Assembly (NCBI GenBank): GCA_963829545.1
Contig: CAWHIX010000008.1
Coordinates: 127,324 to 191,323 of the forward strand
Length of the DNA stretch: 64,000 nt
Reading direction: 5' to 3'
Source of the DNA: an uncultured Actinomycetes bacterium
Lineage (GTDB): Bacteria; Actinomycetota; Thermoleophilia; RBG-16-64-13
Shown: positions 1 through 39,551 of the stretch, piece by piece
Numbering within the stretch: the stretch's first letter is position 1
How the letters are laid out: each line of letters begins with the position of its first letter
The notes under the pieces: generated by a model
The model's database searches: none
Seen by the model: only the letters and a program-made list of their open reading frames with translations
Told to the model about the DNA's origin: nothing
Program-made: the position numbers and the translations under genes

Positions 1-1988
1 GCGAGAACCCCGACCGCGGCCTGTTCCAGGGCAACGGTGCCTTCGGCGGCGGCGTGGTCCAGCCCAGCGGCGACGTGCTCAGGCTGGGCTTCAACCACGT
101 CATCGGCCTGGCCAAGGCCGAGATGGAGAAGATGAAGACCGAAGGGTTCGGGGAAATGCGCGCGAGCACCAATGCGCTGCGCAAGTGGTACCTGCTCAAG
201 TCCATCGTCATCATGTTCGAGGCCCTCATAACCTTCGCCAAGCGGCATGCCGCGCTGGCGCGCGAGCTGGCCGAGAAGACGACCGATCCGGTCCGCAAGG
301 CCGAACTCCTCAAGATCGCCGACGTGTGCGAGCGCGTACCGGCCGAGCCGCCGCGCGATTTCTGGGAGGCCGTCCAGTCGGTGCGCTTCATGCATCTGTC
401 GGCCTGGAAAGAAAGCTCCGACCGCGCCGAGGTTCCAGTCGGTCGTATCGACCAGTTCTGGTATCCCTACTACAAGGCCGACATCGAGAGCGGCAAGATC
501 ACGCGCGCCCAGGCCGCCGAACTGATCGGGGCGATGTGGCTCAAGATCCGCGAGGTCGAGAACCTGGTCACCATCAAGCGCGAGCACCGCGCCGCCCCGG
601 GCAGCCAGTTGCCGAACGTCACGCTGTGCGGGCGCGACAAAGACGGCAACGATCTCACCAACGAGCTTTCCTGGATCGTCCTCGAGGTCATGGCTCAGAT
701 CCACTTGTCCGAGCCGGCCGTCTACGTGCGCTACCACGAGGATCAGGACGAGGACTTCATCGTCCATGCCCTCAAGTGCAACCGTGAGTTCGGCGGCGGC
801 AACCCCGCGTTCCTCAACGACGAGCTGGGCACTCGGCGCTACCTCGATCGCGGCGTACCCATAGAGGACGCCTGCAACTGGAACGCCAGTGGCTGCCTCG
901 GCTACCACATGGAGTGCGCGGAGCACATGGCCGGCGCGTTCAACTTGGTGCAGACCAAGGTCATGGAGGTGACCCTGCACGATGGTTTCGACCCGCGCAC
1001 CGGCAAGCAGATCGGCCTGCATACGGGCGACCCGAGGAACTTCACCTCCATCGAGCAACTCCACGAAGCCTTCCTCAAGCAGGAGGACTACTTCGCGGAG
1101 AAGATGCGCGAGCACTACTTCATCTGGTGGACCACCGAGGCCGCCAACAGCCCCATGAGCGGGCTGCGTGCCGGCATGCTGTTCCGCGACTGCATCCCCG
1201 CCGGTATCGCCTCACGCGAGGGCGGCTGCCGCTATCCCGTGGGGAAGGCCTCGTGGGTGGGCGACAAGGGCATCTGTGACTGCGCCGACTACATGGCCGA
1301 CATCCAGTACCTGGTCTTTGACGAGAAGAAAGTCACCATGGCGCAACTGCTCGAGGCCATGGACGCCAACTGGGAAGGCCACGAGGACATCCGCCAGATG
1401 TGCCTGAAAGCTCCCAAGTACGGCAACGACGACGACTACGTCGACGACTGGTATGTCCGTCTGTCGCGGGACACCCAGGCGATCCTGCAGAGCCGTCCCG
1501 ACCCCATCACCGGTGAGAAGCCCATGCTGTTCAAGGGTGCCGCAGCCGGTCATGTGACCCAGGGCAAAGCCGTGGGCGCCATGCCCAACGGCCGCTTCGC
1601 AGGCACTCCCATCTACGACGGCGGCACCTCCGCCATGGCCGGTGGAGACGTCAGCGGCCCGACGGCCCTCATACTGTCCGCCACCAAGTACCCGACCGCC
1701 TACGAATGCGCCGGTGTGGCCCATAACATGAAGTTCTCCAAGGCGGTCCTCAATTCGCCTGAGAAGCTGCGCAAGATGGCGGCGCTCATCAAGACCTTCA
1801 ACAAGCGCGACGGATGGCACATCCAGTTCAACATCCACAGTGCCGCCGAGCTCATGGAGGCCCGCGAGAAGCCCGAGGCCCACAAAGACCTGCTCGTCCG
1901 TGTGGGCGGCTACAGTGCGTACTTCGTCGATCTGCCGCCCGAACTCCAGGAGGAGATCGTAGAGCGCACCATGCACGAAGTCGGGTAA
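1..1988 (+). CDS. Glycyl radical enzyme (GRE), C-terminal about 650 aa; the 5' end lies upstream of the window. It belongs to the PFL2 / eliminase-decarboxylase-like clade and the substrate is unknown.
   Basis: The reading frame is open back to base 1 (E-N-P-D-R-G...). The C-terminus RVGGYSAYFVDLPPELQEEIVERTMHEV carries the conserved glycyl-radical motif RVxGYSA(F/Y)F and the downstream ...Q.(D/E)II.RT.HE pattern of non-PFL GREs. A cognate activase gene follows immediately. Confidence 0.85.
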   Translation, partial: ENPDRGLFQGNGAFGGGVVQPSGDVLRLGFNHVIGLAKAEMEKMKTEGFGEMRASTNALRKWYLLKSIVIMFEALITFAKRHAALARELAEKTTDPVRKAELLKIADVCERVPAEPPRDFWEAVQSVRFMHLSAWKESSDRAEVPVGRIDQFWYPYYKADIESGKITRAQAAELIGAMWLKIREVENLVTIKREHRAAPGSQLPNVTLCGRDKDGNDLTNELSWIVLEVMAQIHLSEPAVYVRYHEDQDEDFIVHALKCNREFGGGNPAFLNDELGTRRYLDRGVPIEDACNWNASGCLGYHMECAEHMAGAFNLVQTKVMEVTLHDGFDPRTGKQIGLHTGDPRNFTSIEQLHEAFLKQEDYFAEKMREHYFIWWTTEAANSPMSGLRAGMLFRDCIPAGIASREGGCRYPVGKASWVGDKGICDCADYMADIQYLVFDEKKVTMAQLLEAMDANWEGHEDIRQMCLKAPKYGNDDDYVDDWYVRLSRDTQAILQSRPDPITGEKPMLFKGAAAGHVTQGKAVGAMPNGRFAGTPIYDGGTSAMAGGDVSGPTALILSATKYPTAYECAGVAHNMKFSKAVLNSPEKLRKMAALIKTFNKRDGWHIQFNIHSAAELMEAREKPEAHKDLLVRVGGYSAYFVDLPPELQEEIVERTMHEVG

Positions 1989-2076
1989 GCAAGACCGTTC
2001 ATCCCTGGGGCGCCGCCGCCGAAGGCGGCGGCGCCCCGAAGGGTTCTCTCATGATTCGAGCGAGGAGTGATCGGCA

Positions 2077-2988
2077 GTGACCAGCGTTACTGGGACCGTT
2101 TTCAATATCCAAAGGTACAGCATCGACGATGGTCCGGGCATCCGCACTACCGTCTTCTTCAAGGGTTGCCCGCTGAGTTGCGTGTGGTGCTCCAACCCGG
2201 AGTCTCAGAGCCCGGAGCCGGAACTCATGCATCGCGAATCCCTCTGCAAGCGCTGCTACCGCTGTGTGGAGGCCTGCTCCGTCGGTGCGGTCAGCATCGG
2301 CCCTGACGGTGTCGTCATCGACCGAGACCTCTGCACCGTCTGCGGGGATTGCGTTGAGGCTTGTCCGCACGACGCCATGCGCATCACAGGCAAACAGATG
2401 TCGGTGGATGAGGTGATCGCGGTGGCGGAGCGCGACCTGGACTTCTACCGCGACTCGGGTGGCGGCGTCACCCTTTCCGGGGGTGAGGTGCTGCTTCAGC
2501 CGGAGTTCGCCCTGGAGATCCTCAAGCGCCTGCACGACGCCGGCCTCCATACCTGCCTGGATACCTCTGGGCTGGGAGACACGGAAGGGCTGCGCAAGCT
2601 CCTTCCCTTCGTCGACCTCGTCTACTTCGACATCAAACACATCGACCCGAAGATCCACAAGGCCCAAGCCGGCCGTACGAACGAGGCCATCCTGCGCAAC
2701 TTTGGCGAGGTGGCCGCGAGCGGCGTCGAACTGGTGGTGAGGGTGCCCGTCGTCCCCTATTTCAACGATTCAAGCGACGCCATCTCCGACATCGCCGAGT
2801 TGGTCGCCGTGCATGCGCCGGGCGCGACCGTCCATCTGCTGCCCTATCATCGCTACGGACAGCAGAAGTACGGGATGCTCGGTCTGGACTACGAGCTGGC
2901 GGCGGCCGAATCTCCGTCACAGGACTTCATGAAGGCGGCCTGCAAGATCCTGCAGACCCGTGGGCTTACCTGCGAGGTGGCCGTCTAG
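2077..2988 (+). CDS. Glycyl-radical-enzyme activating enzyme (radical SAM) with two extra ferredoxin-like [4Fe-4S] motifs.
   Basis: N-terminus VFNIQRYSIDDGPGIRTTVFFKGCPLSCVWCSNPES is the PFL-activase radical-SAM CxxxCxxC signature. Two CxxCxxCxxxCP motifs lie between residues 50 and 100. It sits directly 3' of the GRE gene. Confidence 0.9.
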   Translation: MTSVTGTVFNIQRYSIDDGPGIRTTVFFKGCPLSCVWCSNPESQSPEPELMHRESLCKRCYRCVEACSVGAVSIGPDGVVIDRDLCTVCGDCVEACPHDAMRITGKQMSVDEVIAVAERDLDFYRDSGGGVTLSGGEVLLQPEFALEILKRLHDAGLHTCLDTSGLGDTEGLRKLLPFVDLVYFDIKHIDPKIHKAQAGRTNEAILRNFGEVAASGVELVVRVPVVPYFNDSSDAISDIAELVAVHAPGATVHLLPYHRYGQQKYGMLGLDYELAAAESPSQDFMKAACKILQTRGLTCEVAV

Positions 2989-3021
2989 CGTCGGCCGCCG
3001 ACTATCAGAGAGAGGGGACTG

Positions 3022-3456
3022 ATGGAGGACCATCTGGGCACTGTCATCACAGGGACCATCGGCGTCGACGCCCATGTGATAGGCACGAAGGTCATATCGA
3101 GGGCTCTGCGCGAAGCCGGCTTCAAAGTCGTAGAACTGGGCGCCCAGACACCGGCCGAGGAGTTCATCATGGCCGCCCAGGAGACTGCGGCGGACGCCAT
3201 GATGATCAGTTCTCTGTACGGCATGGCCGAGATGGATCTCGAGGGTTTCAGGGACAAGTGCACCGAGGCGGGTCTGGAAGATATCCTGCTCTACGTGGGC
3301 GGCATCCTGGGCGTGTCGCGGCGCAACTTCGCCGAGGACGAAGCCAAGTTCAAGGGGATGGGGTTCGATCGCGTATATCCGCCGGAGACCGATATCCGTG
3401 AGGGTATCGCCGATCTCAAGGCCGACCTCAGCCTTAAGCTTGCCGAGCGCCCCTAA
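3022..3456 (+). CDS. Glutamate mutase S (sigma) subunit-like B12-binding protein (MutS/GlmS type, 144 aa).
   Basis: DxHxxG motif (GVDAHVIGTKV). The conserved blocks SSLYGMAEMDLEGFRDKCTEAGL and FKGMGFDRVYPP match, from memory, the Clostridium glutamate mutase S protein ([23 protein letters not shown] / FKAMGFDRVYPP). Confidence 0.8.
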   Translation: MEDHLGTVITGTIGVDAHVIGTKVISRALREAGFKVVELGAQTPAEEFIMAAQETAADAMMISSLYGMAEMDLEGFRDKCTEAGLEDILLYVGGILGVSRRNFAEDEAKFKGMGFDRVYPPETDIREGIADLKADLSLKLAERP

Positions 3457-3494
3457 GGTCCGGCGGGCGGATCTTCACGGGTAGGTCGGTCTTC

Positions 3495-4937
3495 GTGAGC
3501 GACATCCGGCTCTTCGTCGATTTCGGCAGTACCTTCACCAAGCTGGTGGCCTTCGACCTGGAGGCCGAGGAACTTCTGGGCCGGGTACAGGTGCCGTCAA
3601 CGGTCGATCGAGATATCACCGTCGGCCTCGAAGAAGCCTTCTCTCTCCTGGCTGAGACGGTCCCCATCGGAGAGGCCGAGCGCCGGCGCACGGTGGCCTG
3701 CAGCAGCGCCGCCGGCGGGCTCAGAGTCGTGTGTGTCGGCCTGGTGCCGGAGTACACCACCGAAGCGGGTCGGAGGGCGGCTCTGGGGGCCGGAGCCAAG
3801 ATCGTCGGCTCCTACTCCTTCGAGTTGACCGAGGCCGAGCTGCGCGAGATCGGGGAGATAGCTCCGGATATCGTCCTGCTCACAGGGGGGACCGACGGCG
3901 GCAATCAGAAGGTGATCACGCACAACGCCGCCATGCTGGCACGGTCGGGGCCCGGCGTGACGAACATCATCGTGGCGGGTAACAAGTCGGCCTACGACGC
4001 CGTCGAGGCGCTGTTCTCCGGCTCCGGCAAGAACGTCATCTACACCTCCAACGTCATGCCCGAGATCGGCGTGCTCGAGGTCGATGCGGCCAACGGCAAG
4101 ATTCGCGACCTGTTCATCGCCCGCATCACCGAGGCCAAGGGCATCGGCCGGGCTCGGAGCATGATCGCCGACGTGATCATGCCCACGCCGGCGGCCGTCC
4201 TCGAGGCTGCGAAGCTGCTCGCCGACGGCACCGCCGGGCAGCCGGGTCTGGGCGAGTTGCTGCTGGTAGATGTCGGCGGGGCCACGACGGATGTGTACTC
4301 CGTCGCCAAAGGAACACCCGCAAACGGCTCGGTCCACGTCGTCGGCCTGCCCGAACCCTACGCGAAGCGAACGGTCGAGGGCGATCTCGGCCTGTTCCAC
4401 AATCTGGATACCTTGCAGGAGACCGTGGAACCGGACAACATGCCTCCGGGCTTCCCCGAGGCGGTTGCAGCCATGCGTGCCGAGAACAGCGTGCCCTCGG
4501 GAGTGGAGCAGGTCGCCTGCCACCTCTTGCTGACCAAGGCGGCCGTCCGCTCGGCGGTGAACCGTCACGCGGGTTCGCTCAAGTCTGTGGCGACTCCCAA
4601 CGGAGAGGTATGGCTGCAGCGGGGCAAGGACCTCACTGAGGTCGGCTGGCTGGTGGGCGCCGGGGGTCCCGTCTGCTTCTCGGCCGATCCCGTCCAGGTG
4701 CTCGAGGGCGCAGTGTTCGAGCCCGGCTTCCCCATGTTGCTCAAGCCCAAGGCGCCGCAGATGCTCCTCGACGCACACTACATTCTCTTTGCCCTGGGCC
4801 TCCTCGCCCAGAGCGAACCCTTGAAGGCCCTGGCGCTGATGCGGAGGTACGTGACGCCTCTGCAGTCTCCACGATCGCCGGCTCACGAGGAACGCACGAC
4901 CAGCCAGGAAAGGACGGAGGAACATGTCGGGGTCTGA
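3495..4937 (+). CDS. GlmL/MutL-like ATPase (glutamate mutase accessory protein family; actin/ASKHA fold).
   Basis: GTG start. N-terminus RLFVDFGSTFTKLVAFD is the phosphate-1 motif of the GlmL family. The protein is 480 aa and sits directly after the glmS-like gene, as in clostridial glmS-glmL-glmE operons. No glmE follows. Confidence 0.7.
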   Translation: MSDIRLFVDFGSTFTKLVAFDLEAEELLGRVQVPSTVDRDITVGLEEAFSLLAETVPIGEAERRRTVACSSAAGGLRVVCVGLVPEYTTEAGRRAALGAGAKIVGSYSFELTEAELREIGEIAPDIVLLTGGTDGGNQKVITHNAAMLARSGPGVTNIIVAGNKSAYDAVEALFSGSGKNVIYTSNVMPEIGVLEVDAANGKIRDLFIARITEAKGIGRARSMIADVIMPTPAAVLEAAKLLADGTAGQPGLGELLLVDVGGATTDVYSVAKGTPANGSVHVVGLPEPYAKRTVEGDLGLFHNLDTLQETVEPDNMPPGFPEAVAAMRAENSVPSGVEQVACHLLLTKAAVRSAVNRHAGSLKSVATPNGEVWLQRGKDLTEVGWLVGAGGPVCFSADPVQVLEGAVFEPGFPMLLKPKAPQMLLDAHYILFALGLLAQSEPLKALALMRRYVTPLQSPRSPAHEERTTSQERTEEHVGV

Positions 4938-5397
4938 TGCGCAGAAGTACTTTGTTAGTAGACCGGCCTACGAGATCGTCCCGGCCGTCGAGGTGGCGGG
5001 TCGCATACCCGCCATGACCCTGCTGAGCAACAACCTTATCCCCGGCGCCGACAACTACGTGGAGGCCGGCTGGATACTGGCCATGCCCGATCCGCCGACC
5101 CACATCTTCGAGCACGTGCACGACTACGACGAGATCGTCATGCACATCGGCACCGATCCCAACGATCCGGAGGATCTGGGGGCCGAGATCGAGTTCGTTG
5201 TGGACGGAGAGCCGCTCATACTCACCAAGACCTCTTCCGTGTTCGTGCCCAAGGGTGTGAAGCATGGTCCCTTGACTTGGAAGTCGTTCAGCAAGCCCCA
5301 CTTGGAGATGACGGTCATGCTCGGCGCCGGCAGTCTGGCCGAAGCCGATCCCGGTGGCCACATGGAGAAGATGGAACAGGGCGGTGTGGAGAAGTGA
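4924..5397 (+). CDS. Small metal-binding cupin, 157 aa, function unknown (family A, copy 1).
   Basis: Cupin motif 1 HVHDYDEIVMHIG (HxHxxxE) and motif 2 VPKGVKHGP (PxGxxH). It overlaps the end of the GlmL-like gene. Confidence 0.6.
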   Translation: MSGSDAQKYFVSRPAYEIVPAVEVAGRIPAMTLLSNNLIPGADNYVEAGWILAMPDPPTHIFEHVHDYDEIVMHIGTDPNDPEDLGAEIEFVVDGEPLILTKTSSVFVPKGVKHGPLTWKSFSKPHLEMTVMLGAGSLAEADPGGHMEKMEQGGVEK

Positions 5398-5876
5398 GCG
5401 AGTCGAAGTACGGCAAGTACATCCTCACCGAGGACCGCATGCCGCCCATGCCCGAGGCGATGGTCAAGGCCATGGATGATCAGGCGAAAGAGGGCAAGAC
5501 ACTCGACCGGACGATGCTGCTGGGCATCATGGACTCCATCGTGCCCGGGTGCTCGCTCTTCGCGGGCTGCGAGATCCTGTGGGGACTCCCCGGGGGCCAA
5601 CCGGTCGACATCGAGATACCTCACAGCCACGATTTCGACGAGATCATTGGGTTCGGCGGGACGAACCGGAACTACCCCCGGGAACTGGGCGGCGAGATCG
5701 AGTTCCACATGGGGGGCGAGACGCACACCATCACCAAGACCTGCCTCATCTTCGTGCCCAAGGGCGTGGAACACTGTCCGGTCACCCTCAAGCGTATCGA
5801 TACCCCCATCTTCATGTTCGAAGCGGCCAACGACCCCGACTACGTGAAGCAGTTCCAGCCTGAGACCGTAGAATGA
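5395..5876 (+). CDS. Small metal-binding cupin, paralogue of the preceding gene (family A, copy 2).
   Basis: GTG start overlapping the stop of the previous gene (GTGA). Motifs HSHDFDEIIGFGG and VPKGVEHCP. It aligns along its whole length with 4924..5397. Confidence 0.6.
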
Positions 5877-5886
5877 GGAGAGACTC

Positions 5887-6381
5887 ATGGCGATGACCTA
5901 CGACGAGTTCGCTGCCTGGATAGACGAGTACTTCGAGGCCTTCAACCTTTATGGCCAGGACCCGGCTGAGATCCACCGCATGGACAAGTACTTCTCCAAG
6001 GATGTGGTGTACAACCCCTACATCGCCTACGTGGGCAAGGTGACCGGCCGGGACAACTGGTACAAGGTACTCACGTCACACCCCTCCGGCATCGAGCGGT
6101 TGACCCCCGAGCACTTGGTCATCGATGAAGGGCGGCAGGTCTTCGTCGCCCAGATAAGGACCGACATAATCGACCGCGACACCCAAGAGCTACTGCTCAC
6201 CAAGCGCTATCTGTGCCGCTATCCCCTGGTGGAAGAGGACGGTGTCATGAAGATCGAGCGCCTCGACTTCTTCTGGGAGATCCTGCCGGCGGGCGCCCTG
6301 GAGATCGACGATGTCTTCGAACGTGACTGGAAACAGAACGCCGACGGACCGCAGCGCATGCTCGGAGGAGGAACAGAATGA
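5887..6381 (+). CDS. NTF2/SnoaL-like (ketosteroid-isomerase-fold) protein, copy 1.
   Basis: 164 aa. N-terminal pattern (D/E)xxxWxDEYFEAFN and overall hydrophobic patterning are typical of the SnoaL/NTF2-like superfamily. It is paralogous to the following ORF. Confidence 0.55.
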   Translation: MAMTYDEFAAWIDEYFEAFNLYGQDPAEIHRMDKYFSKDVVYNPYIAYVGKVTGRDNWYKVLTSHPSGIERLTPEHLVIDEGRQVFVAQIRTDIIDRDTQELLLTKRYLCRYPLVEEDGVMKIERLDFFWEILPAGALEIDDVFERDWKQNADGPQRMLGGGTE

Positions 6382-6839
6382 AACCGACGCGCGACGACAT
6401 CGTGAAGTGGATGAACGACTATTTCGCCGAGTACAACGCCAGCGCGCAGGACGCTGAGACCGTTCACGCCATGGACACGTACTTCGCCCCCGACCTCACC
6501 TTCATACCTTATATGAGCGCCTTCGGCGGGCCGGGAGCGGCGATCACCGGCAGTGAGAATTTCTACCGTACGCTGACCACTCATCCCGACGACTACGAGA
6601 GGTTCGAAGTACTCGACATCTTCGTCGACGAGGAGCGCCTGGTGTCGGTCGCGTTTCTGATCGCGCGGATCTTCAGTACGAAGACCGACGAACTGCTGGT
6701 GCAGAAGCACTACCTGCCTCTCTATGAACTGGCCATCAACGACGACGGCGAGCTGAAGATCAAGACCATCCGGTTCTTCTGGGAAGCCTCTCCCCCGGAG
6801 GTCGACGCAAACTACTCAGGCGCGGCGAAGGGACGATAG
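6378..6839 (+). CDS. NTF2/SnoaL-like protein, copy 2 (tandem paralogue).
   Basis: 153 aa. IVKWMNDYFAEYNA corresponds to FAAWIDEYFEAFNL in copy 1. The ATGA overlap indicates translational coupling. Confidence 0.55.
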   Translation: MKPTRDDIVKWMNDYFAEYNASAQDAETVHAMDTYFAPDLTFIPYMSAFGGPGAAITGSENFYRTLTTHPDDYERFEVLDIFVDEERLVSVAFLIARIFSTKTDELLVQKHYLPLYELAINDDGELKIKTIRFFWEASPPEVDANYSGAAKGR

Positions 6840-6843
6840 CAAG

Positions 6844-8937: not shown

Positions 8938-8996
8938 GCATGGTCCACGCGGGCGATACCACGAGCGGAAGCGGCGCCAGGGCGCGGCACGGCTAC

Positions 8997-10859: not shown

Positions 10860-10890
10860 TGCATACAACTCGACCATACGGAGCCGACTG

Positions 10891-11721
10891 ATGTATCTCG
10901 AGAACAGAGTGGCGATAGTGACCGGCGGAGCCAAGGGCATGGGCAGAGGCATCGCCCTCAAGTTCGCCGAGGAGGGAGCGGACGTGGTGGTCTGCGACCT
11001 GGACCTGCCGGGCGCGCAGAGCGTGGCCCGGGAGATCGAGGCCTTGGGCCGAAAAGGCCTGGCCTTCAGGACCGACATCACGAACAGCTCGGAGATCAAG
11101 GAGATGGTGGCCGGCACCCTCGAGGGGCTGGGTACCATCGATGTGCTGATCAACTGCGCCGGCGGGGTGGGGGGAACCCACGGTTCGGGCGCAACTGGGA
11201 CCATGAGCGAGGAAGAATGGGACAGGGTGCTCGCGATCAACCTCAAAGGCCCCTGGCTGGTGACCGAAGCCGTGCTGCCCACCATGAAAGAGAAGAAGTA
11301 CGGCAAGATAGTCTTCATCTCCTCTACGGGGGCCGTGTCCCCGGTGGTGTCGGTGCTTCACTACCATGCCGCCAAAGCCGGCGTGATCGGCCTCGCTCTG
11401 AACCTCGCTTTTGAGCTGGCACCACAGAACATTTGCGTGAACACGATCGTCCCGGGGCCGGTCGAGACTCCCTTCTGGGATGCGCTCATGCCTGCCGGCC
11501 CGGAGCGCGACACTTTCTTCGCGGCCGTCTCGAAGCACGAGGTACCGCTGGGCAGGATGGGACAACCGAAGGACATCGCCGGGGCCTGCCTCTTCCTCTC
11601 CTCGGAACTCTCCGACTACGTGACCGGGCAGACCATCTGCGTGGCAGGAGGCCAGCCCATGCTGTCCCAGCAAGCCACCTTCAACATCGAAGCCTATCTG
11701 AAAGATCGAGGCCTACTATGA
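10891..11721 (+). CDS. Short-chain dehydrogenase/reductase (SDR).
   Basis: RVAIVTGGAKGMGRGIA glycine-rich NAD(P) motif, YxxxK present, about 276 aa. Confidence 0.85.
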   Translation: MYLENRVAIVTGGAKGMGRGIALKFAEEGADVVVCDLDLPGAQSVAREIEALGRKGLAFRTDITNSSEIKEMVAGTLEGLGTIDVLINCAGGVGGTHGSGATGTMSEEEWDRVLAINLKGPWLVTEAVLPTMKEKKYGKIVFISSTGAVSPVVSVLHYHAAKAGVIGLALNLAFELAPQNICVNTIVPGPVETPFWDALMPAGPERDTFFAAVSKHEVPLGRMGQPKDIAGACLFLSSELSDYVTGQTICVAGGQPMLSQQATFNIEAYLKDRGLL

Positions 11722-14474: not shown

Positions 14475-14563
14475 ATTCTATGTGCTGAAATATAGTTTGC
14501 CGATGACCAACGACGAGCGACGGCAGCCGGCAGGCGGCCGTCGCCCATCCAGGGGGTGAACGT

Positions 14564-17173: not shown

Positions 17174-17174
17174 C

Positions 17175-21737: not shown

Positions 21738-21954
21738 ACGGGATGACCATCACGTGGTCGCCGTCCTGCAGACGATGGTGAAGCCGGACGTAGACCCCGT
21801 TGACGAGGATCGCTTCGGTGTCGCCGGGAACGTGGAGGATCTCGAGCAGATCGTCCAGGGTCATGCCGTCTACGAGCGGCACGCAAACAGTCGGACGACC
21901 CTCCCTGGCCGGGAAGGTCTCCACGGTGACCGTGCTCTGTCTTTCGGCGTTCAT
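21721..21954 (-). CDS. MoaD/ThiS-family beta-grasp sulfur-carrier-like protein (about 77 aa) on the opposite strand.
   Basis: Ends ...LQDGDHVMVIPFMSGG (canonical C-terminal Gly-Gly). It overlaps the 3' end of the preceding small-subunit gene by 17 nt. The longer ORF (93 aa, start 22002) is the alternative. Confidence 0.6.
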   Translation of the reverse strand: MNAERQSTVTVETFPAREGRPTVCVPLVDGMTLDDLLEILHVPGDTEAILVNGVYVRLHHRLQDGDHVMVIPFMSGG

Positions 21955-22025
21955 GCCTGCCAGTTTACTCGCTGTGGGCCGTGCATGTGGCAAAGAGTCC
22001 ACGTCTAGTGGAGGGTTAGACTAAC

Positions 22026-24311: not shown

Positions 24312-24352
24312 AGCGTTCTGGGGGCGAGAGCGCCGCAGAGAAGGAGAGGCTC

Positions 24353-27257: not shown

Positions 27258-27267
27258 AGGAGGAGAG

Positions 27268-28084: not shown

Positions 28085-28104
28085 GGGGCTGGGGAGCAGC
28101 TCAC

Positions 28105-30862: not shown

Positions 30863-32897
30863 ATACCCGCATCTCTTCGCGCCCATCCGCCTGGGCGGAG
30901 CCGTCTTCGCCAACCGTCTCTTCTCCGCTCCCATGGGCTACGAGTACCTGTCGTCCAGGAACTACCCCCTGGACGAGACCATCGCCTTCTACGAGCGCCG
31001 CGCGGTGGGGGGCGCGGGCGCAGTGAGTGTGGGCTCTGCAGTGGCGGACAGCAGACGGGGTTGCATCGGGCTCAGCAACACCTATCTCGACGACCCGACC
31101 GCGCTGCCCCCTATCTACCGTCTGGCGTCGGCCATCAACCGGCACGGAGCCGTGGCCGCGATCGAGCTGCAGCACTCCGGGGCCAACTCCTATCATTCGG
31201 CGGCGCAGGGCAACCAGATCTACGGGGCCGTCGACGGGGAGAACGCTCTGGGCCAGTTCGTCCCGGCCATGCCGGCCGAGATCATCGAAGAGACCATCGA
31301 GGCCTACGGCGACGCGGCGGCCTTCGCCAAGTTCTGCGGCTTCGGCCTGGTGACCGTTCACGCCGGTCACGGCTGGTTGCTCAACCAGTTCCTCGACCCC
31401 AACGTGAACGATCGCAAGGACGAGTGGGGTGGCGGCCGAGAGAACCGCTGCCGCTTCCTGCTCCGTATCGTGGAGCGCATCAAGCAGAAATGTGGTTGCG
31501 GATTCCCCGTCGACGTCCGCATGAGTGGGTCGATGTGCCACGAAAGCGGATACGGCATCGACGAGGGCATCGCTATCGCCAAGCAACTCGACGGTAAGGT
31601 GGACCTCATCCACGTGTCGGCGGGCAGCCACGAGATCCCCGAGGTCTTCACGGTCACGCATCCCAGCATGTTCATGCCGGATGGGCCCAATGTGGTGTTC
31701 GCGGCTGAGATCAAGAAGCACGTCCAGACTCCGGTGGCGGCCGTGGGTGCCCTTGGCGACCCCGAACTCATGGAGGAGATCATCGCCTCCGGCCAGGCGG
31801 ACGTGGTGTACGCCGCCCGAGCCCTCATGGCCGACCCCGACCTGCCCCGGAAGGCCCGCGCCGGGCAGGATGAAGAGATCAGGCCCTGCATCCGTTGCTT
31901 CGAGTGCTTCGCCGGCATCACGACCAAGCGCCAGTACCGGTGCGCTGTGAACCCGGAAATAGGTTTCGAAGAGGAAAGCCGGCACGCTCTGCCGACGGCG
32001 AAGCCGAAGCGGGTCCTGGTCGTGGGTGGGGGAGTGGCCGGGCATGCAGGCCGCCCTCACCGCTGCCGAGCGGGGGCATGAGGTGATCCTGTGCGAGAAG
32101 TCCGACCGCCTGGGCGGTGTGCTCCGGTGCGAGGAGAAGGTGCCGTTCAAGAGGCTTCTGTCCCAGTATCTGGACCAGCAGGCGGGGATGATCAGGCGGG
32201 CGCCCATCGACGTCCGGCTCGGCACCTCAGTCACGCCCGAACTGGCGGAAGCCGTCGAGGCCGACGTCGTCCTGGCAGCCCTGGGCGCCCGTCCCTGCGT
32301 TCCCGGAATCCCGGGGATCCACGGCCCCAACGTCCTCGGGGCTGAAGAGGCCTACCTGTCGCCGGAGCGGACCGGCGATGGGGGCGACAGCGTCGTCGTC
32401 CTGGGCGGAGGACTGGTGGGCATCGAGTTGGCCGTCTTCCTCGCCGGTCTGGGGCGCGACGTGACCATCATGGAGATGATGGAGACTCTCAGCGACGGAG
32501 GCAACCCCGTTCAAGGCCTCGCCCTGATGAAGGAGATCAAGCGCTTGGGAATCAAGGTCTCCACCTCTACCAGAGCTTCAGAAGTCGACGAAGAAGGGTG
32601 TCATAGGGGAGTACGTGGGGAGCGCCTATACGCTGCCGCCATGCCGCACGGTGCAACAGGCGGTGCTGCAGTCGAACAGCTTCGGCAGGGCCGTGCGCGC
32701 CGACATCGAGGTGGGGAGCAAGACGCTGTTCGCCGCCGATACCGTCGTCTACGCGACGGGGCAACAGCCGCTCCAGGACGAAGCGGACGCGTCTGCGCTT
32801 CTGCGCACCCGAGTTCTATCAGATCGGGGACTGCTGGAGACCGAGGAACATGGTGGAGGCCACGCGCATGGCCTTTGCCGTCGCGCGCGACCTGTGA
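30849..32897 (+). pseudogene. Second OYE-family enoate reductase with FAD/NAD(P) domain, with at least 3 apparent frameshifts.
   Basis: MYTCKYPHLFAPIRLGGAVFANRLFSAPMGYE... is the OYE N-terminus. HAGHGWLLNQFLDP is the active-site region. CIRCFECFAG is a Cys cluster. The dinucleotide fold VLVVGGG[P]AGMQAALTAAERGHEVILCEK is broken by a 1-nt indel near 32040. Further breaks lie at about 32600 and 32820. It ends ..MAFAVARDL* at about 32897. Confidence 0.7.
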
Positions 32898-32924
32898 GCG
32901 ACCAAGGAGGAGGGGAGGATGTCA

Positions 32925-33872
32925 TGAGTTCGTCAGAATATGAGAGGTTCGCGGTTCGCTGGCCGGAGCCGCAGGACGGGTCTCTCGGGGTCGGGACGGG
33001 GCAGGGATCCGCCGTCACCCTTCTGAGTGACGCGCAGGTGCCGGGGGCCGGCCATCACGTCCGCCTCGCCTGGATCCGTGGCATCCCGGAGGCCGGGCCC
33101 GGGCAGGTCGAGCAGGTTCTCGACCACGACCAACTGCTCCTGCACGTGGGCATGGACCATACGACGCCGCAGGATCTGGGCGCCACCGTCCGCCTCTACC
33201 TCGGCGGTCAGCCCGTGGTGTTCAACACCACGACCGCGGTCTTCATCCCCAAGGGCACCCCCTACGGCCCCTTCACTTGGGAGGAGTTCCGCCGGCCGTA
33301 CGTGCAGCTCTCGCTGGTGTTCGGGTCCGGGGAGAGCCCGGCTCCGAAGGCCGCCGAAGATGCCGCTGCTGGCCGTGATGGCGCCATCCCACGCAAGAGG
33401 GAGGTCTTCGACTACGAGCAGTACGTGGTCCGCAGCCCCATGCGAGAGGCGGGACCGGAGTTCGTGGAGGGCCGGCAGAACCCCACCATGACCTACCTCA
33501 GCCGCACCCAGGTCAATGCCGTGAACAACTATCTCGAGTTTGGCTGGATATGGGACGTGCCCCGGCCATCCATCCCCAAGATGCGCCACGACAACTTCGA
33601 CGAGATCGTGCTCCACATCGGCAGCGACCCCGACCATCCCGAAGACCTGGGCGGGATACTCCAGTTCGGCATCGGTGACGAGCTGCTCGAGTTCGACACC
33701 ACCCATTGCGCCTACATCCCCAGGCGGGTGGATCACGGTCCCCTCATCTGGAAAGAAGTGCGCCGGCCCCTCATCGAGATGGCTCTCATGCTGGGCGCCG
33801 GCGATCTATGCCGAGGGATGGGAGAACAGCTTCTTCGACCTCCCCGATGGAGAGCGCCGCGGCGCCAGGTAA
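32925..33872 (+). CDS. Tandem double-cupin protein (two family-A cupin domains fused), with a possible frameshift near 33800.
   Basis: The first half (..VFIPKGTPYGPFTWEEF..) is a degenerate cupin lacking the His ligands. The second half (MRHDNFDEIVLHIGSDPDHPEDLGG...IPRRVDHGPLIWKE..MLGAG) aligns with 4924..5397. The end is ambiguous between 33872 and 33946. Confidence 0.5.
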
Positions 33873-33887
33873 CCACCCGCAGGAAGG

Positions 33888-34371
33888 ATGTCCACCATGC
33901 CCGAATCCGATCACAGCAAGTACATCATCACCGAGCGCAGACGTGACTCCCGCGACGCGGTCATGCCGCCCGGGGTCGATCCGGCCTCGATCACCGACAC
34001 CAAGTCTCATTTCAAGCTGATGAGCCTGGACGACCACGTGCTCAAGGGTTCCCTCTACACCGAGGTGGTGTGGATGTGGCCCGGCGGGAGCGACGTCTAC
34101 CCGGAGACGGCCGAACCCGCGCCCCACGCCCACGAGTACGACGAAGTGCTGGGCTTCTTCGGGAGCGACTTCGACGCCCCCTACGATCTGGGCGGCGAGA
34201 TCGAGTTCTGGTTGGAGGACGAGAAGTTCCTTGCTCACCAAGAGCTGCCTCATCTTCGTCCCCAAGGGCATGTACCACTGCCCTCTGGTGATCCGGGAGG
34301 TAAGAAGGCCCATCTTCCACTTCTCATCCGGCCCGGGAGGCACCTACGTGCAGGAGACGGCAGAGGCGTGA
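33888..34371 (+). CDS. Family-A cupin, fourth locus copy, with one apparent frameshift near 34235.
   Basis: HAHEYDEVLGFFGSDFDAPYDLGGEIEFWLEDEKF is followed in the +1 frame by LLTKSCLIFVPKGMYHCPLVIREVRRPIFHFSSGPGG..*. Both cupin motifs are present. Confidence 0.5.
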
Positions 34372-34422
34372 GCGAACACGGCCCGGAAGCCGGGCGCCCG
34401 AGCGACGCCGGCAGGGAGCCGA

Positions 34423-35226
34423 TGAGCAGGCCCATCACCGACCTTGCGCGGGTGATGGACGTCTCGGGTCGCAAGGTGATCGTCACGGGCGGGAGCCGCG
34501 GTATCGGGTGGGGTATCTGCCAGGCATTTGCGCAGCGGGGCGCCGACGTGGCCATCCTGGACATCGACGTGGCGGCCGGTGAGGCTGCCGCCCAGGAGCT
34601 TCGCGAGAGCGGGGGCGACCACGTGTTCGTGGAGTGCGACGTCACCGACAGGGGCATGGTCGAACGTGCCGTCGGCAGCGGTCGGCCGCCCGTTTCGGCC
34701 ACATCGACGTGCTGGTGAACAACGCCGGCATCGCCGCCATCAAGCCCTTCCTCGACATGGACGACGACCTTCCCGAGTATCACCGGGTGATCGCCGTGAA
34801 CCTGCACGGCACCGTGTACATGACGCATGCCGTCGCCCGGGTCATGCGCGCCGCCGAGCGGGGGCGGCCTCGATCATCAACATCTCGTCCATCGGCGGAG
34901 CTCGTTGCTCCGGATCGAAGGATCTGCCCCAGGTGGGCTACGTGGCCTCGAAGGCGGCGGTGAACCACCTGACGGCGTTCCTGGGCCATCGAGTTCGCCG
35001 AGCACGACATCCGCGTGAACTGCATCATGCCCGGACCGACGCGCTCCAAGCTGGACGAGCAACTGACGCCGGAGTGCCGGGCGAGGATGATGCAGGGCCT
35101 CCTCGACCGGCGCTACGGCGAGCCGCTCGAGATCGGTGCGCTCTGCGTGTTCTTCGCCTCAGCGGAGGGGGCCCATCTGAACGGCGTGGTCATGCCGCAC
35201 GACGGCGGTTTCCTATGCATCAACTA
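34423..35226 (+). pseudogene. SDR-family oxidoreductase split across 3 or 4 reading frames.
   Basis: KVIVTGGSRGIGWGI (frame a); IDVLVNNAGIA...NLHGTVYMTHA (frame b); IINISSIGG...YVASKAAVNHLT (frame c); IRVNCIMPGPT...NGVVMPHDGGFL* (frame d). Confidence 0.6.
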
Positions 35227-35347
35227 GGCAGTTCGATCGGACCAGGATCGAGCGGACGCGAGGTTCCTGGGTGTACGTGTACAGTAGGCGGCATCGAAGC
35301 GAAGGCGACAGCAGGCAACATCGAGCAAAGCGGGGGTCGACATCCAC

Positions 35348-36731
35348 ATGAGCACCAACACCAGCAATGATTCAAAGCCCGGGATCCCACAGGATCCGAT
35401 GTTCTCCGGGTGGGAGCAGCTGGACTGGAAGGAACGCCGCGAGCGCCGCTTCGAGCGCTGGAAGAGTGCCCCGGACGTCCAGTTTGCGAGCGAGTCGGTC
35501 AAGCGCGACTACCAAGAGCGCGCCCAGAACCTCATCGATGCCATCACCCTCAAGAAGCCGGCCCGCGTGCCGACCACTGCCTCGGTCGGCTACTACGTGG
35601 GCAAGTACAGCGGGCTCAGCAAGAAGGAGTCCATGTACGATTACGAGAAGTCGGCGGCGGCTCTCGTCAAGTATCACGAGGACTTTCGCCCCGATTTCCA
35701 GACCTCGGCGGTGGCTCCGGCCAAGGTCTTCGAGAAGCTCGGCCTCGAGCTCGTCGACTGGCCGGGCAGGGGCCTGGCGGACGACACGCCCTGGCAGTAT
35801 CTCGAGACGGAGTACATGCGTGAGGACGAGTACGACGCCCTCATCGCCGATCCGGAGGTCTACTTCCGGCGCAGCCTGCTGCCCCGCTTCGGGTCGGCTT
35901 TCGCTCCCCTGGCCGGGCCGGCGCCCTTTACCGACATGATGGAAGCCACCACCATGCTCTTCAGCATCCTGCCCTTCGCCGATCCGGCGGTGGTTGAGGG
36001 AGTGCAGAGGCTGGCCGACGCCGCTCGGGAGTGCCTTGCCTACCTGACAGCCATGGGGGCCGCCGGCGCGGATGCGGCCGGGCGATTGGGCATCCCGTCT
36101 TCGTTCGGGGGTCTCGCCAAAGCTCCCTACGACATCCTGGCCGACACCCTGCGGGGCACGAAGGGCATAATGGTCGACCGCTTCCGCCGGCCGGAGAAGA
36201 TCCTCGAAGCCTCCGAGCGGCTGGTGCCCATCGTGGTCGAGTGGTGCACCCGCCAAGCCTCGCGGCCGGGTGGACCGCTCATCATCTTCGTTCTGCACAA
36301 GGGCGCCGACAGCTTCATGTCCGATGCCGACTTCCGCACCTTCTACTGGCCGACGCTGAAGGCGGTCATGAAAGGCGTCATCGAACAGGGCATCGTGCCC
36401 ACCATGTTCGCGGAGGGGGGCTACAACAAGAGGCTGGAAGTGATCGCCGACCCCGAACTGCCCACCGGCAGCGTGCTGTGGCTGTTCGACCAGACCGACA
36501 TGGCGCGCGGCCAAGCGGGCGCTGGGCGGCCACTCCTGCATCGCCGGCAACGTCCCCACGGCGCTACTGGCCTTGAGCACCGTCGACGAGGTGAAGGCCT
36601 ACACCACCGACCTGCTCGACACCTGCGCCAGGGACGGCGGCTTCATGCTCGAGAACGGTGCCGTCCTGGACGATGCGAAGCCCGAGAACCTCAAGGCCAT
36701 GCTGGAGACGGGTCAGAACTGGCGCGGCTGA
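35348..36731 (+). CDS. Uroporphyrinogen-decarboxylase (UroD/MtaA/CmuA)-fold family protein, one apparent frameshift near 36515.
   Basis: About 460 aa. The C-terminal region in the shifted frame (GGHSCIAGNVPTALL..GT.DEVKAYTTDLLDTCARDGGFMLENG..ENLKAML) is the typical UroD-like ending. This fold is used by corrinoid-dependent methyltransferases and decarboxylases. Confidence 0.55.
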
Positions 36732-36829
36732 TGACCTGCGAACTCAGGCGCGGTTTCTTCGGCCGCGGTTTCTGTTGATCGACAACAAACTAGCGCGCAT
36801 CGGCGCCCTGGTGAGAACGGAGGCACGAC

Positions 36830-37939
36830 ATGAGTGACATACCCAAGACCTGCAAGGCGGCGGTGCTGGTGGAGTACGGCCGGCCTCTCGAGATCCAGGA
36901 GGTGGCTATCCCCGAACTCGAGAGCGGGGCCATCTTGGTGAAGGTGGAGATGGCCGGCATCTGCGGCACCGACGTCCACCAGCAGAAGGGCGAACTGACC
37001 ATCAAGAGCCCCCTGCCCAACATCCAGGGTCACGAGACCATCGGTCGGATCGTCAAGATGAGTGAGGGACGGGTCATCGACGCCGCGGGTGAGCCGATCA
37101 AGGTCGGCGATCGCATCATGTGGGCCCACGCCGACTGCGGCGAATGCTACTGGTGCCAGATCGAGCGGGACCCCGTCCTCTGCGCGAAGAGATCCGGGTA
37201 CGGCTGGGCGCCGCCCGTCGCGCTCCGGGGTGGTTTCGCCGAGTACGAATACGTCACGCCCAAGACCAACGTCGTGAGAGTGCCCGACGAACTGACCGAA
37301 GAGGAGTCGGTCGGGGTCGGTTGTGCCTTCCGGAGCGTCATCGCTGGATACGACCGCTTTGGCAAAGTGGGACTCATGGAGGACTTCGTCATCCAGGGTT
37401 GCGGTCCGATCGGGCTCTACTCCACGGTGGTCGCGCGCGAGAGCGGTGCCCGCAACATCATAGTGGTGGGAGCCCCTCAGAATCGTCTGGAACTTGCCAA
37501 GCGCTGGGGAGCCGACCACGTTATCAACATCGACGAGGTCAAGACTCCCGAAGAACGGAAAGAGATCATCCTCGGTCTCACGAAGGGCAGGGGCCCGGAG
37601 AATGTGGTCGAAGCGGCCGGCGTGCCTGCAACGGTAGCCGAAGGTCTGGACATGATCCAGAAGGGCGGGAAGTACCTCATCCTGGGTCAGACTTCGGCCG
37701 CTGCGACACCCATCATCGTCAGCCGCATCAATGAGAAGGGGCTCACCATCGTGGGGAGCGTCTCGGCCCACGTCGTCCACTTCTACAGAGCCCTGCAGTT
37801 CATCAAGACACATCGCAGCAGGTATCCCTTCGGCGAGATCGTGACCGGCAAGTACCGACTCGAGGACATCAACGAGGCCCTCGCCAACATGGCGGCCGGC
37901 AAGGACATCAAGCCGGTCATCGACAATCGCGGCCGGTAG
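36830..37939 (+). CDS. Zinc-dependent medium-chain alcohol dehydrogenase (MDR family).
   Basis: GICGTDVH, GHETIGRIV, structural-zinc Cys cluster CGECYWCQ, Rossmann GCGPIGL. 369 aa, intact. Confidence 0.85.
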   Translation: MSDIPKTCKAAVLVEYGRPLEIQEVAIPELESGAILVKVEMAGICGTDVHQQKGELTIKSPLPNIQGHETIGRIVKMSEGRVIDAAGEPIKVGDRIMWAHADCGECYWCQIERDPVLCAKRSGYGWAPPVALRGGFAEYEYVTPKTNVVRVPDELTEEESVGVGCAFRSVIAGYDRFGKVGLMEDFVIQGCGPIGLYSTVVARESGARNIIVVGAPQNRLELAKRWGADHVINIDEVKTPEERKEIILGLTKGRGPENVVEAAGVPATVAEGLDMIQKGGKYLILGQTSAAATPIIVSRINEKGLTIVGSVSAHVVHFYRALQFIKTHRSRYPFGEIVTGKYRLEDINEALANMAAGKDIKPVIDNRGR

Positions 37940-37951
37940 GAGGCACGAGAA

Positions 37952-38761
37952 ATGACCTTCAAACCCTTCCTTCGACCCAACAAGGTCCTAGCGGCCCTGG
38001 AGGCGGGCGAGACCCCCTTGGGCATGCAGATGTACACGCACGACCCGGACCTGGTGGAGATCGTCGGCTACGCCGGTTTCGATTTCGTGATGCTCGACAT
38101 GGAGCACAACCGCACCAACCCGGAGACCATGGTGAGCCTCATCCGGGCGGCGGAAGTGTCCGGGCTCACGCCGCTGGTCAGGGTCGGGGCGAACGACACC
38201 TTCCTCATCCGTTCGGCGGTGGAATCGGGCGCTCAGGGTATTGTCGTCCCCCACGTGAAGAGTGCCCAGGAAGCCGAAGCTGCTATGGCGGCCTCGCACT
38301 ATCCGCCTGAGGGTAAGTGCGGCATCTGCCCCGCCATCCGCGCATCGGGCTACTCCCAGGAGAACTGGGAGGAGTACATGGCTGCGGCGAACCGTCAGAT
38401 CATGTTCATACCCCTGCTGGAGGACGTGGAGGCCATCGACAACGCCGAAGAGATCATCGGGCTGCTGAAGCCGGGCCGCGACGCCGTGGGAGTGGGAGGA
38501 GCGGACATCGCCAACGCCCTGCTGACGGAGCCCGGGGAGAAGGTGCAGTGGGCGCACCCCTATCTGCGGGAAGCCAATCTGAAGGTGAAGGCGATCTGCG
38601 AAGACAAAGGCATCCCCAGCATGGGCATGGCCTTTCCCACCTCAGATCGAGCCGGTGTGGAGGCAGCGAAAGCCAACGGGACGAAGATCGTCATCTTCTA
38701 TCCCGACAGCCACATCTGGATGGAAGCGTGCCGGAAGATCATCAAAGACGTCCGGGGCTGA
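37952..38761 (+). CDS. HpcH/HpaI-family 2-keto-3-deoxy-acid aldolase.
   Basis: 269 aa. The sequence FVMLDMEHN...PLVRVGAND..GAQGIVVPHV matches the family pattern. Confidence 0.8.
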   Translation: MTFKPFLRPNKVLAALEAGETPLGMQMYTHDPDLVEIVGYAGFDFVMLDMEHNRTNPETMVSLIRAAEVSGLTPLVRVGANDTFLIRSAVESGAQGIVVPHVKSAQEAEAAMAASHYPPEGKCGICPAIRASGYSQENWEEYMAAANRQIMFIPLLEDVEAIDNAEEIIGLLKPGRDAVGVGGADIANALLTEPGEKVQWAHPYLREANLKVKAICEDKGIPSMGMAFPTSDRAGVEAAKANGTKIVIFYPDSHIWMEACRKIIKDVRG

Positions 38762-38807
38762 TCGCGGTGCCCGGTCGGTTGTTGCAGCCCGAGGATGGTG
38801 AAGCCGG

Positions 38808-39551
38808 ATGAAGCTCTTCGTCTTGGACGGGGGCCGCGCGCACCTGCCCGACATGAACCACCTGACGCCGGACCGCAACGTGGGCAAGCCCATCACCATC
38901 CCCATCGTGATGTTCCTGATCGACCATCCCAAGGGACTGGTGGTGTTCGACACGGGTGTGGATACCGACGATAAGGACGATCCCTTCCTCGACGCCGAGC
39001 CCGGGCAGCGCATCGACAGGCAGATCGAACGTTTGGGCTACAAGACGAGCGATGTCAAGTATGTGGTCGTATCTCACCTGCACATCGACCACATCGGGGG
39101 CATGGTCTTCTTCCCCGATGCCACCTTCATCGTCCGGCGCCAGGAACTGCGGGCCGCCTGGTGGCCGGACGCTTCCGAGCGGGGCTACGACTTCGAGAGG
39201 CTTCTGCCCACCCGCGGTCTCAGATATCTGCAGCCCGCCGAGGGGGAGACCGTGGACGTGTTCCAAGACGGCTCTCTGTTGTGCATCGACACCAAGGGGC
39301 ACACGGAGGGCCACCAGTCGCTTGTCGTTCGGCTGCCCGAATCGGGCACGAGTGGTCCTCGCCGGTGACGCGGTCCAGGTGGCCGAGAACCTGGACGCTG
39401 TCGTGCCTCCCGGCCCGTGCTGGAGCAACCGCTGGGCGGTCCAGCAGATCGAGATGCTGCAGCACATGCGGGCCGAGGGGGCGCTGGTCATACTGGGGCA
39501 CGAACTGGCCCAGCTGGATACTTTGAAGCTGGCGCCCGCTTACTACGACTG
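38808..39551 (+). CDS. Metallo-beta-lactamase-fold hydrolase (N-acyl-homoserine-lactonase-like), one apparent frameshift near 39350.
   Basis: HLHIDHIGG (HxHxDH) motif. C-terminal part in ORF 38956..39552 (..VVLAGDAVQVAENLDAVV..ILGHELAQL..). Confidence 0.65.

Follow-up and report, generated by a model that had tools for sequence, protein, structure and literature searches.

We analysed a 64-kb stretch of genomic DNA (G+C 64%; hereafter the window), the first 39552 bases of which carry a densely packed set of genes for anaerobic catabolism. These bases probably make up the downstream two-thirds of a catabolic array that covers at least 50 kb on the same strand and is built as a chain of translationally coupled blocks and not as one operon without a regulator, with the missing functions encoded upstream of the window. 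The host is probably an uncultured anaerobic, Thermoleophilia/Gaiellales-like soil actinobacterium. The initial annotation had described the region as a 'regulator-free super-cluster', a description that holds for the window but need not hold for the array, which the window start cuts inside the gene for a glycyl radical enzyme (GRE). The 'regulator-free' appearance is thus largely due to where the window starts.

Genes were called by six-frame codon-usage scoring and Pfam scans of every coding segment. As the coding signal changes frame at many sites within single genes, they were reassembled from fragments via Pfam, NCBIfam and PDB matches (Table 1). Codon-usage frames and Pfam place ∼ 30 genes on the plus strand and one on the minus strand in bases 1–39552. 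The total of ∼ 31 is lower than the ∼ 35 counted at first because single-base frameshifts, at least 25 in number, split genes into fragments. The array reads as a run of 18, then of 12 same-strand genes, far above chance expectation; in the remaining 24 kb of the window, by comparison, the strand changes about every second gene. What separates the two runs is a single minus-strand gene for a ThiS/MoaD-like protein, which overlaps the stop of the preceding β2 gene by 17 nucleotides (nt) and is separated by 71 nt from the next plus-strand gene. Gene calls for a 98%-identical strain (L085) and for two 81%-identical relatives (L086 and L087) also place this gene on the minus strand, in all three directly upstream of the acetylene-hydratase-like ortholog. 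The uniform strand expected of a single operon is therefore broken by a conserved gene, and the earlier statement that every gene lies on the plus strand applies to the other ∼ 30 only.

Approximately 24 of the 31 junctions are 41 nt or shorter, or overlap, in line with what had been noted before; the larger gaps measure 88, 68, 71, 120, 98 and 46 nt. ATGA/GTGA couplings had been reported at seven sites. Five are exact 4-nt overlaps (5397, 6381, 8937, 11721 and 18006), but those at 4937 and 30862 are overlaps of 14 nt (ATG at 4924 and 30849). The region does carry a very long, closely packed array of anaerobic catabolic genes on the same strand, and family, NCBIfam and PDB matches agree that radical, B12, Mo/W, flavin and NAD(P) chemistry come together in it.

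The search for regulators took in every open reading frame (ORF) of coding-like composition across the 64 kb, at Pfam thresholds of E ≤ 0.01–0.1. No transcription factor, two-component, sigma factor, transposase or integrase family was matched, either in the array or in bases 39552–64000. Ten further ORFs with coding-like G+C at third codon positions, antisense to genes or in gaps, also gave no Pfam match, and tblastn of the window with the IclR protein, OmpR-type regulator and histidine kinase of relatives was negative. Those proteins that lack a family match are cupin/NTF2-like paralogs or small conserved ORFs, none with a recognisable DNA-binding domain. Regulators concealed in the frameshifted regions, which the initial annotation had named as the finding that would overturn it, were not found; these regions are fully explained by enzyme homology. 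Pfam likewise finds no transporter within 1–39552, an APC permease being encoded only at 45.4–47.1 kb. The reported lack of regulator, transporter and mobile-element genes is thus borne out. With no detectable regulator gene of its own, the window must be controlled from outside.

Control at the post-transcriptional level had been offered as the other possibility. In its fullest form this would make the region a self-contained super-operon without a dedicated regulator, governed by a riboswitch, attenuation or RNA stability, or expressed constitutively. Such an arrangement would agree with the lack of a regulator domain in 64 kb, with the many 4-nt overlaps, which imply translational coupling, and with a homologous contig (contig_89230, see below) that likewise extends over at least 42.6 kb without a regulator. 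Rfam, however, returned no molybdenum cofactor, cobalamin or other riboswitch, and indeed nothing at all, on the window at gathering thresholds (matches at E ≤ 1 were only eukaryotic or viral noise: snoRNA, miRNA and flavivirus families); the largest intergenic gap, at 120 nt, offers scant space for leader RNAs, the window opens within its first gene, and homologous arrays exist with an upstream IclR gene. We consider a self-contained super-operon quite unlikely. Of the two sources of control first suggested, the outside one is retained.

Table 1. Genes and RNA features of the array (bases 1–39552) and its end. nt, nucleotides; aa, amino acids.
Feature	Position	Strand	Evidence and remarks
GRE, C-terminal 661 of 851 aa	3–1988	+	PFL-like and Gly_radical domains; gene start upstream of window
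GRE-activating radical SAM enzyme	2077–2988	+	Radical_SAM and Fer4; TIGR02494 350 bits (cut-off 174)
Glutamate (methylaspartate) mutase S subunit, B12-binding	3022–3456	+	PDB 1I9C E 1.5e-41; NF002612 188.8 (cut-off 110)
GlmL/MutL mutase accessory protein	3495–4937	+	PF13941 E 4e-149; NF040745 511.9 (cut-off 475)
Two cupin-like genes	4924–5397, 5394–5876	+	Weak Cupin_2; kept in all close relatives; paralogs at 32950–34440
Two NTF2/SnoaL-like genes	5887–6381, 6378–6839	+	Weak SnoaL_2; mutually similar paralogs; kept in relatives
OYE1, OYE-type FMN and FAD/NAD(P) enoate or dienoyl reductase	6844–8937	+	Oxidored_FMN and Pyr_redox_2
AOR1, tungsten aldehyde:ferredoxin oxidoreductase	8934–10859	+	AFOR_N, AFOR_C; best PDB 1AOR E 3e-98
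SDR1	10846–11721	+	Pfam
SDR2	11718–12597	+	Pfam; 1-nt insertion at 12207
AOR2, second aldehyde:ferredoxin oxidoreductase	12638–14495	+	AFOR_N and AFOR_C over two frames; 1-nt insertion at 13057
Transhydroxylase-like α1	14564–17173	+	AhtL-like_1st, Molybdopterin, Molydop_binding; PDB 4V4C E 2e-137
Transhydroxylase-like β1	17175–18006	+	Fer4_11 and CarboxypepD_reg; 1-nt insertion at 17501
Conserved ORF, 99 aa	18003–18302	+	Between β1 and α2; start overlaps β1 stop by 4 nt
Transhydroxylase-like α2 / β2	18319–20907 / 20910–21737	+	Pfam; pair 2 has ∼ 66% DNA identity to pair 1
ThiS/MoaD-like gene, 77 aa	21721–21954	-	PF02597 E 2e-10; C-terminal Gly-Gly; ATG start; sole reversed gene in the run
Acetylene-hydratase/catechol-dehydroxylase-like bis-MGD enzyme	22026–24311	+	PDB 2E7Z E 5e-133; Pfam; upstream GGAGG ribosome-binding site
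Transhydroxylase-like α3	24353–27290	+	Pfam fragments; several frameshifts; start uncertain (in-frame ATG 24353 or 24515)
Transhydroxylase-like β3	27293–28084	+	Fer4_11 and CarboxypepD_reg
Transhydroxylase-like α4	28105–30862	+	Tandem duplicate of α3, 84% DNA identity; ∼ 20 single-base insertions relative to L085
OYE2, second OYE-type reductase	30849–32943	+	Oxidored_FMN, then Pyr_redox_2 in another frame; frameshifts near 32030 and 32600
Second cupin set: double A-type copy, then B-type copy	32950–34440	+	Translations; DNA similarity to 5120–5779; frameshifted
SDR3	34455–35227	+	Pfam; split over three frames
URO-D-family protein	35348–36731	+	PF01208 in two frames; frameshift near 36510; intact 451-aa ortholog in L086
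Terminator-like hairpin, T-rich tail, 3' of URO-D-like gene	36749–36767	+	Weaker than hairpin at 39563–39588
Zn alcohol dehydrogenase	36830–37939	+	Pfam
HpcH/HpaI aldolase/lyase	37952–38761	+	Pfam
MBL-fold hydrolase	38808–39552	+	Pfam; frameshift near 39340
Hairpin, 11 G-C pairs	39563–39588		Between last array gene and convergent minus-strand gene; -36 kcal/mol, z = -4.3

Evidence for an upstream continuation comes from the closest relatives, which were collected by a GRE-anchored scan of species-representative genomes and are uncultured Actinomycetota labelled Thermoleophilia/Gaiellales (up to 94% amino-acid identity, several from long-read soil metagenome-assembled genome (MAG) projects). 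The synteny of bases 1–12000 is kept in more than 15 Thermoleophilia/Gaiellales/Actinomycetota MAGs, and the comparison with related MAGs that had been called for finds the same gene order in L080, L082, L085, L086 and L087. Five upstream contexts were examined; in these relatives the array extends upstream by another 10–19 kb with its strand unchanged. In L080, this orientation holds for all of the 10 kb upstream, which encode a LIV-type ABC permease, two ATPases, AKR, ABM, NuoF- and NuoG/GltD-like Fe-S flavoproteins, an FAD enzyme, SDR, SnoaL and then the GRE. L082, a clean short-read scaffold, repeats this gene order, the ABC system being complete and a GCV_T gene present. A single 642-kb contig, contig_89230, carries three further loci that overlap (L084, L002 and L086), and at least 42.6 kb of it lie on one strand. 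Its 5' part carries hydantoinase/acetone-carboxylase-like genes, AFOR and Met_asp_mut_E (GlmE, 14.5 kb upstream of the GRE), followed by the ABC system, the GRE and the first block of the array; the 3' part carries the minus-strand ThiS-like gene, the acetylene-hydratase-like gene, URO-D, one transhydroxylase α and OYE2, after which the array ends.

The flanking contigs of these relatives were also where regulators were sought, with a divided result. On contig 1 of GCA_026415615.1, two loci lie 6.5 kb apart in the same orientation: L083, in which an HTH_IclR/IclR_C gene is embedded on the same strand among ABC, SDR, FAD and NuoF/G-like genes, and L087, which runs from MutL through OYE2 to the array end. 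A JGI contig has MFS, SDR, NmrA, IclR, PrpD, SDR, GlmE, SBP and ABC genes, with the IclR gene again on the same strand. Contig_89230, in contrast, has no regulator in the at least 42.6 kb read, which include at least 18.8 kb upstream of the GRE. This contig shows that regulators are genuinely scarce in these arrays, and that the window edge is only part of the cause. Just past the homologous array end in L087, a convergent gene (14973–15989, minus strand) encodes a winged-helix and NRD1_2 protein that may be a regulator.

The regulators could instead be encoded elsewhere in the genome, as global anaerobiosis or carbon regulators or as a distant two-component system, in which case the IclR protein of the relatives would serve only its own neighbours. 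Contig_89230, with its long regulator-free stretch upstream of the GRE, is in keeping with this, as is a second locus in GCA_026415615.1: on another contig of that assembly (L081 13734–15828), an orthologous GRE-activase pair stands alone and has directly behind it the genes for an OmpR-type response regulator and a HAMP histidine kinase. We nevertheless judge it unlikely that control is exerted from elsewhere. Embedded IclR-type regulators are the usual arrangement in actinobacterial aromatic catabolic clusters, and tblastn finds no homolog of that two-component pair in the window. An array that continues upstream, in some relatives as far as an embedded IclR gene, is the reading we prefer.

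The frameshifts fall in SDR2, AOR2, β1, α3, α4, OYE2, the second B-type cupin gene, SDR3, the URO-D-like gene and the MBL gene. Alignment with three relatives pinned the insertions at 12207 and 13057. Over 15662–24368, L085 and the window are 98.1% identical with only four 1-nt indels, and the frameshift at 17501 is absent from L085, whose β1 is intact (276 amino acids). Over α3-β3-α4 the same two sequences differ by 33 one-base indels, at 96.6% identity (24555–30862). Window α4 has ∼ 20 extra bases relative to L085, each coinciding with a frame switch; all of its indels are insertions and none is in a long homopolymer. Between α3 and α4, substitutions affect codon positions 1, 2 and 3 at 10.4%, 7.0% and 26.5%, and this third-position bias implies that both evolved as coding genes. 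L080, with 96.4% nucleotide identity to the window, is broken in genes that are intact in the window, e.g. MutL and OYE. From these alignments we conclude that most of the frameshifts are probably errors in the consensus of a long-read assembly, most severe near the tandem paralogs.

Two other explanations bear on this region. The first takes the frameshifts as real, with α3/α4 and 32–35 kb a decaying, pseudogenised paralog expansion. Some 20 of the at least 25 frameshifts do lie within 24–35 kb, α4 differs by its ∼ 20 one-base insertions from α3 as well as from L085, the indels avoid long homopolymers and a GCV_T remnant may be present at 24.4–24.5 kb. Against these observations stand the strong third-position bias of the α3/α4 substitutions and a coding signal that runs on across every shift; other genes of the window (the permease and the aminotransferases) are frameshifted too, sister assemblies are broken at different places, and an insertion-only bias is untypical of real bacterial gene decay. 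Decay is in our view improbable. The second explanation, that the co-directional layout is an assembly chimera, could appeal to an error-rich assembly whose 84%-identical tandem paralogs are able to mislead assemblers, but the gene order shared with L080, L082, L085, L086 and L087 recurs in independent assemblies from other samples and projects, which leaves a chimera extremely unlikely. Consensus errors of the kind we propose matter beyond this contig, since in long-read MAGs they inflate gene counts and can mimic pseudogenes.

Several observations weigh against an upstream-extended array of coupled blocks with consensus errors. An IclR gene was seen in only two of the five upstream contexts, and contig_89230 is devoid of regulators as far as it was read. 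The upstream content is deduced from relatives at no more than 96% nucleotide identity, and the link between L083 and L087 spans 6.5 kb outside the sequence read. The concentration of ∼ 20 one-base insertions in α4 is an odd error profile and could reflect real decay. Finally, a scan for sigma-70 consensus promoters gave fewer matches than in shuffled sequence and is uninformative for this actinobacterium.

We suggest that the array works as three blocks preceded by an upstream part. Block A, the conserved one, consists of the GRE and its activase, mutase S and L, two cupins, two NTF2-like proteins, the enoate reductase, AOR1, two SDRs and AOR2. Block B, which appears expanded in this lineage, comprises four transhydroxylase-like α(/β) sets around the acetylene-hydratase/catechol-dehydroxylase-like enzyme, with the ThiS-like gene before that enzyme. 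Block C holds OYE2, cupins, SDR3, the URO-D-type protein, the alcohol dehydrogenase, the HpcH-type lyase and the MBL hydrolase. Transcription most likely starts from promoters upstream of the window and in the few gaps of 68–120 nt, and would end at the hairpin at 39563–39588. The upstream part would supply LIV-type ABC uptake, an NADH/ferredoxin-type electron module, mutase E and, in some relatives, an IclR-family regulator, to which we infer that control of the array may fall.

Read most economically, the pathway would process hydroxylated or methoxylated plant aromatics under anaerobic conditions, as suggested by the combination of transhydroxylase-like pairs, an acetylene-hydratase-like enzyme, aldehyde oxidoreductases, enoate-type reductases, SDRs, URO-D/GCV_T-type parts of a candidate demethylase and the upstream LIV-type ABC system. 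A comparable organization is reported from Thauera aromatica AR-1, in whose anaerobic dihydroxybenzoate cluster the LysR regulator DbdR is said to control four promoters. As far as titles cited in PMC7028382 tell, this too is a large anaerobic aromatic cluster that includes a molybdoenzyme and is divided into several transcription units under one regulator. It differs in phylum and enzymes, in having a LysR regulator where the relatives studied here have IclR, and in carrying the regulator inside the cluster, whereas none is found within 40 kb here. As genome organization, the array is another large, multi-unit catabolic array; such arrays with a regulator at one end are already known. The benzene-activation cluster of a 2026 paper was also compared and is unrelated to the array.

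The block B enzymes have two characterized counterparts. The transhydroxylase-like sets were recognized by a large bis-molybdopterin guanine dinucleotide (bis-MGD) subunit with an AhtL-like first domain and a small 3x[4Fe-4S] subunit that ends in an Ig-like domain. This matches pyrogallol-phloroglucinol transhydroxylase of Pelobacter acidigallici (PDB 4V4C), with its large bis-MGD and small Fe-S subunits: the α proteins of the window have ∼ 860–870 amino acids, the β proteins have ∼ 275 with Fer4_11 and a C-terminal CarboxypepD_reg-type domain, and α directly precedes β. Unlike the Pelobacter system, four α genes (66–84% DNA identity to one another) and three β genes are found in one actinobacterial array, beside an acetylene-hydratase-like enzyme. 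Among characterized enzymes, acetylene hydratase is the one closest to the actinobacterial catechol dehydroxylases (PMC7028382). The loci for such dehydroxylases in gut Eggerthellaceae (Eggerthella and Gordonibacter; PMC7028382) likewise encode an actinobacterial bis-MGD enzyme nearest to acetylene hydratase that acts in anaerobic plant-phenolic metabolism. Compared with these loci, the window enzyme, likened to them through its sequence match to acetylene hydratase, is a single soluble-type gene inside a 40-kb array, preceded by a divergent ThiS-like gene and without an adjacent regulator.

The 99-residue ORF between β1 and α2 gave no Pfam or NCBIfam match and no BLASTP similarity to the ThiS-like protein; it has a counterpart of 97 amino acids in L085 (2347–2640). 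A single-sequence AlphaFold2 model of it had a mean pLDDT of 47 and was set aside. At the other end of block B, the first ∼ 65 codons of α3 resemble the N-terminus of GCV_T (tblastn with the GCV_T of L001, E 1e-5 at 24416–24541). This segment, between the acetylene-hydratase-like gene and α3, forms an in-frame ORF of 66 codons with a good ribosome-binding site (24353–24553), which, judged from this similarity, may be a GCV_T remnant from a rearrangement. In block A, an identification of AOR1 as a BamB-type benzoyl-CoA reductase was dropped, as in the PDB it matches aldehyde:ferredoxin oxidoreductases much more strongly. The URO-D-family protein of block C belongs to a family of which corrinoid methyltransferases are also members. 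The hairpin behind its gene is a possible internal boundary between transcription units. The U-rich tail of the hairpin at 39563–39588, which marks the 3' end of the array, is confined to the minus strand. A search of the window for tRNA genes was negative.

Beyond the array, a third aldehyde:ferredoxin oxidoreductase is encoded at 42485–45078 (minus strand) together with a 4Fe-4S ferredoxin and a second ThiS/MoaD-like gene, the product of which ends in Gly-Gly-Gly; ThiS-like genes repeatedly adjoin Mo/W enzymes in this genome. A separate amino-acid/polyamine module follows at 45422–52596, with genes for the APC amino-acid permease (interrupted by four or more frameshifts) and for saccharopine dehydrogenase, and with three for class-III aminotransferases, of which two lie on the plus strand (both frameshifted) and one on the minus strand. 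A frameshifted gene at 54798–55587 (minus strand) encodes a secreted low-complexity protein with a signal peptide, repeated CDGTCDG(E)CDGTCDG motifs and long Ala/Thr/Gln-rich stretches, and has no Pfam match.

The GRE and the mutase genes head the array within the window. The window GRE is 100% identical to residues 191–851 of a full-length protein (P0001), i.e. the window opens 190 codons into the gene. Its glycyl loop (RVGGYSAYF; Gly_radical domain, E 4e-26) and Cys loop (ASGCLGYH) are invariant in 114 homologs of 58–100% identity. The closest structural-sequence matches (E ∼ 1e-105 to 1e-112) are the GRE eliminases HypD, HpzG, glycerol dehydratase, CutC and IslA, with which it has in common the glycyl loop, the catalytic Cys and a dedicated activase (CX3CX2C motif at residue 31). 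Eliminases that cleave C–O bonds keep the Glu of a Cys-x-Glu motif (PMC13450708). In the window GRE, by contrast, the C-L-G of the Cys loop aligns with GCVET of HpzG and HypD, so that Gly replaces this Glu, and its scores fall far below every NCBIfam GRE cut-off (best 476 bits against 1000; TIGR01774 471 against 678). A role as fumarate-adding enzyme (benzylsuccinate/alkylsuccinate synthase) was rejected, true BSS and MasD being only distant matches; the PDB entry 8IOF, labelled 'benzylsuccinate synthase', is actually the hydroxyproline dehydratase HpzG.

Mutase S also exceeds the TIGR01501 cut-off and has the DxHxxG motif as DAHVIG. As in the clostridial glutamate mutase operon (S, L, E), S and L score above NCBIfam equivalog cut-offs; unlike that operon, the mutase genes here adjoin a GRE, and tblastn finds no catalytic E subunit anywhere in the window. 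Met_asp_mut_E is encoded upstream in relatives, ∼ 14 kb upstream in the actinobacterial ones. A fusion of E and S, placed between the GRE activase and GlmL, occurs in Firmicutes, Desulfobacterota and others, e.g. as a protein of 639 amino acids in Sporobacter termitidis (L032 13399–15318). Among 41 loci of this GRE family with adequate flanks, genes within 10 kb include the activase in 32, GlmS in 27, GlmL in 23 and GlmE in 17, and loci in which GRE and mutase are neighbours (among L011–L075) come from Actinomycetota, Bacillota, Desulfobacterota, Bacteroidota and Acidobacteriota. In the searchable literature we found no description of a GRE linked to glutamate/methylaspartate mutase, or to Thermoleophilia.

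We tentatively propose that the window GRE belongs to an unnamed, widespread clade that lacks the eliminase Glu in its invariant Cys loop and that sits next to GlmS/E/L-like genes in about two-thirds of the well-flanked loci. The glycyl radical and adenosylcobalamin enzymes may act successively on one substrate in an undescribed anaerobic pathway, and the pair may have become the core of a plant-phenolic array of more than 50 kb in soil Thermoleophilia. This GRE-mutase module is the part of the array most deserving of follow-up: the pairing of a GRE with a B12 mutase-like system is uncharacterized, conserved and open to direct test by heterologous expression. For the uncultured Thermoleophilia that are widespread in soils and digesters, the array as a whole would represent a concrete anaerobic plant-phenolic toolkit, one that may bear on carbon turnover in anoxic soils and peat.

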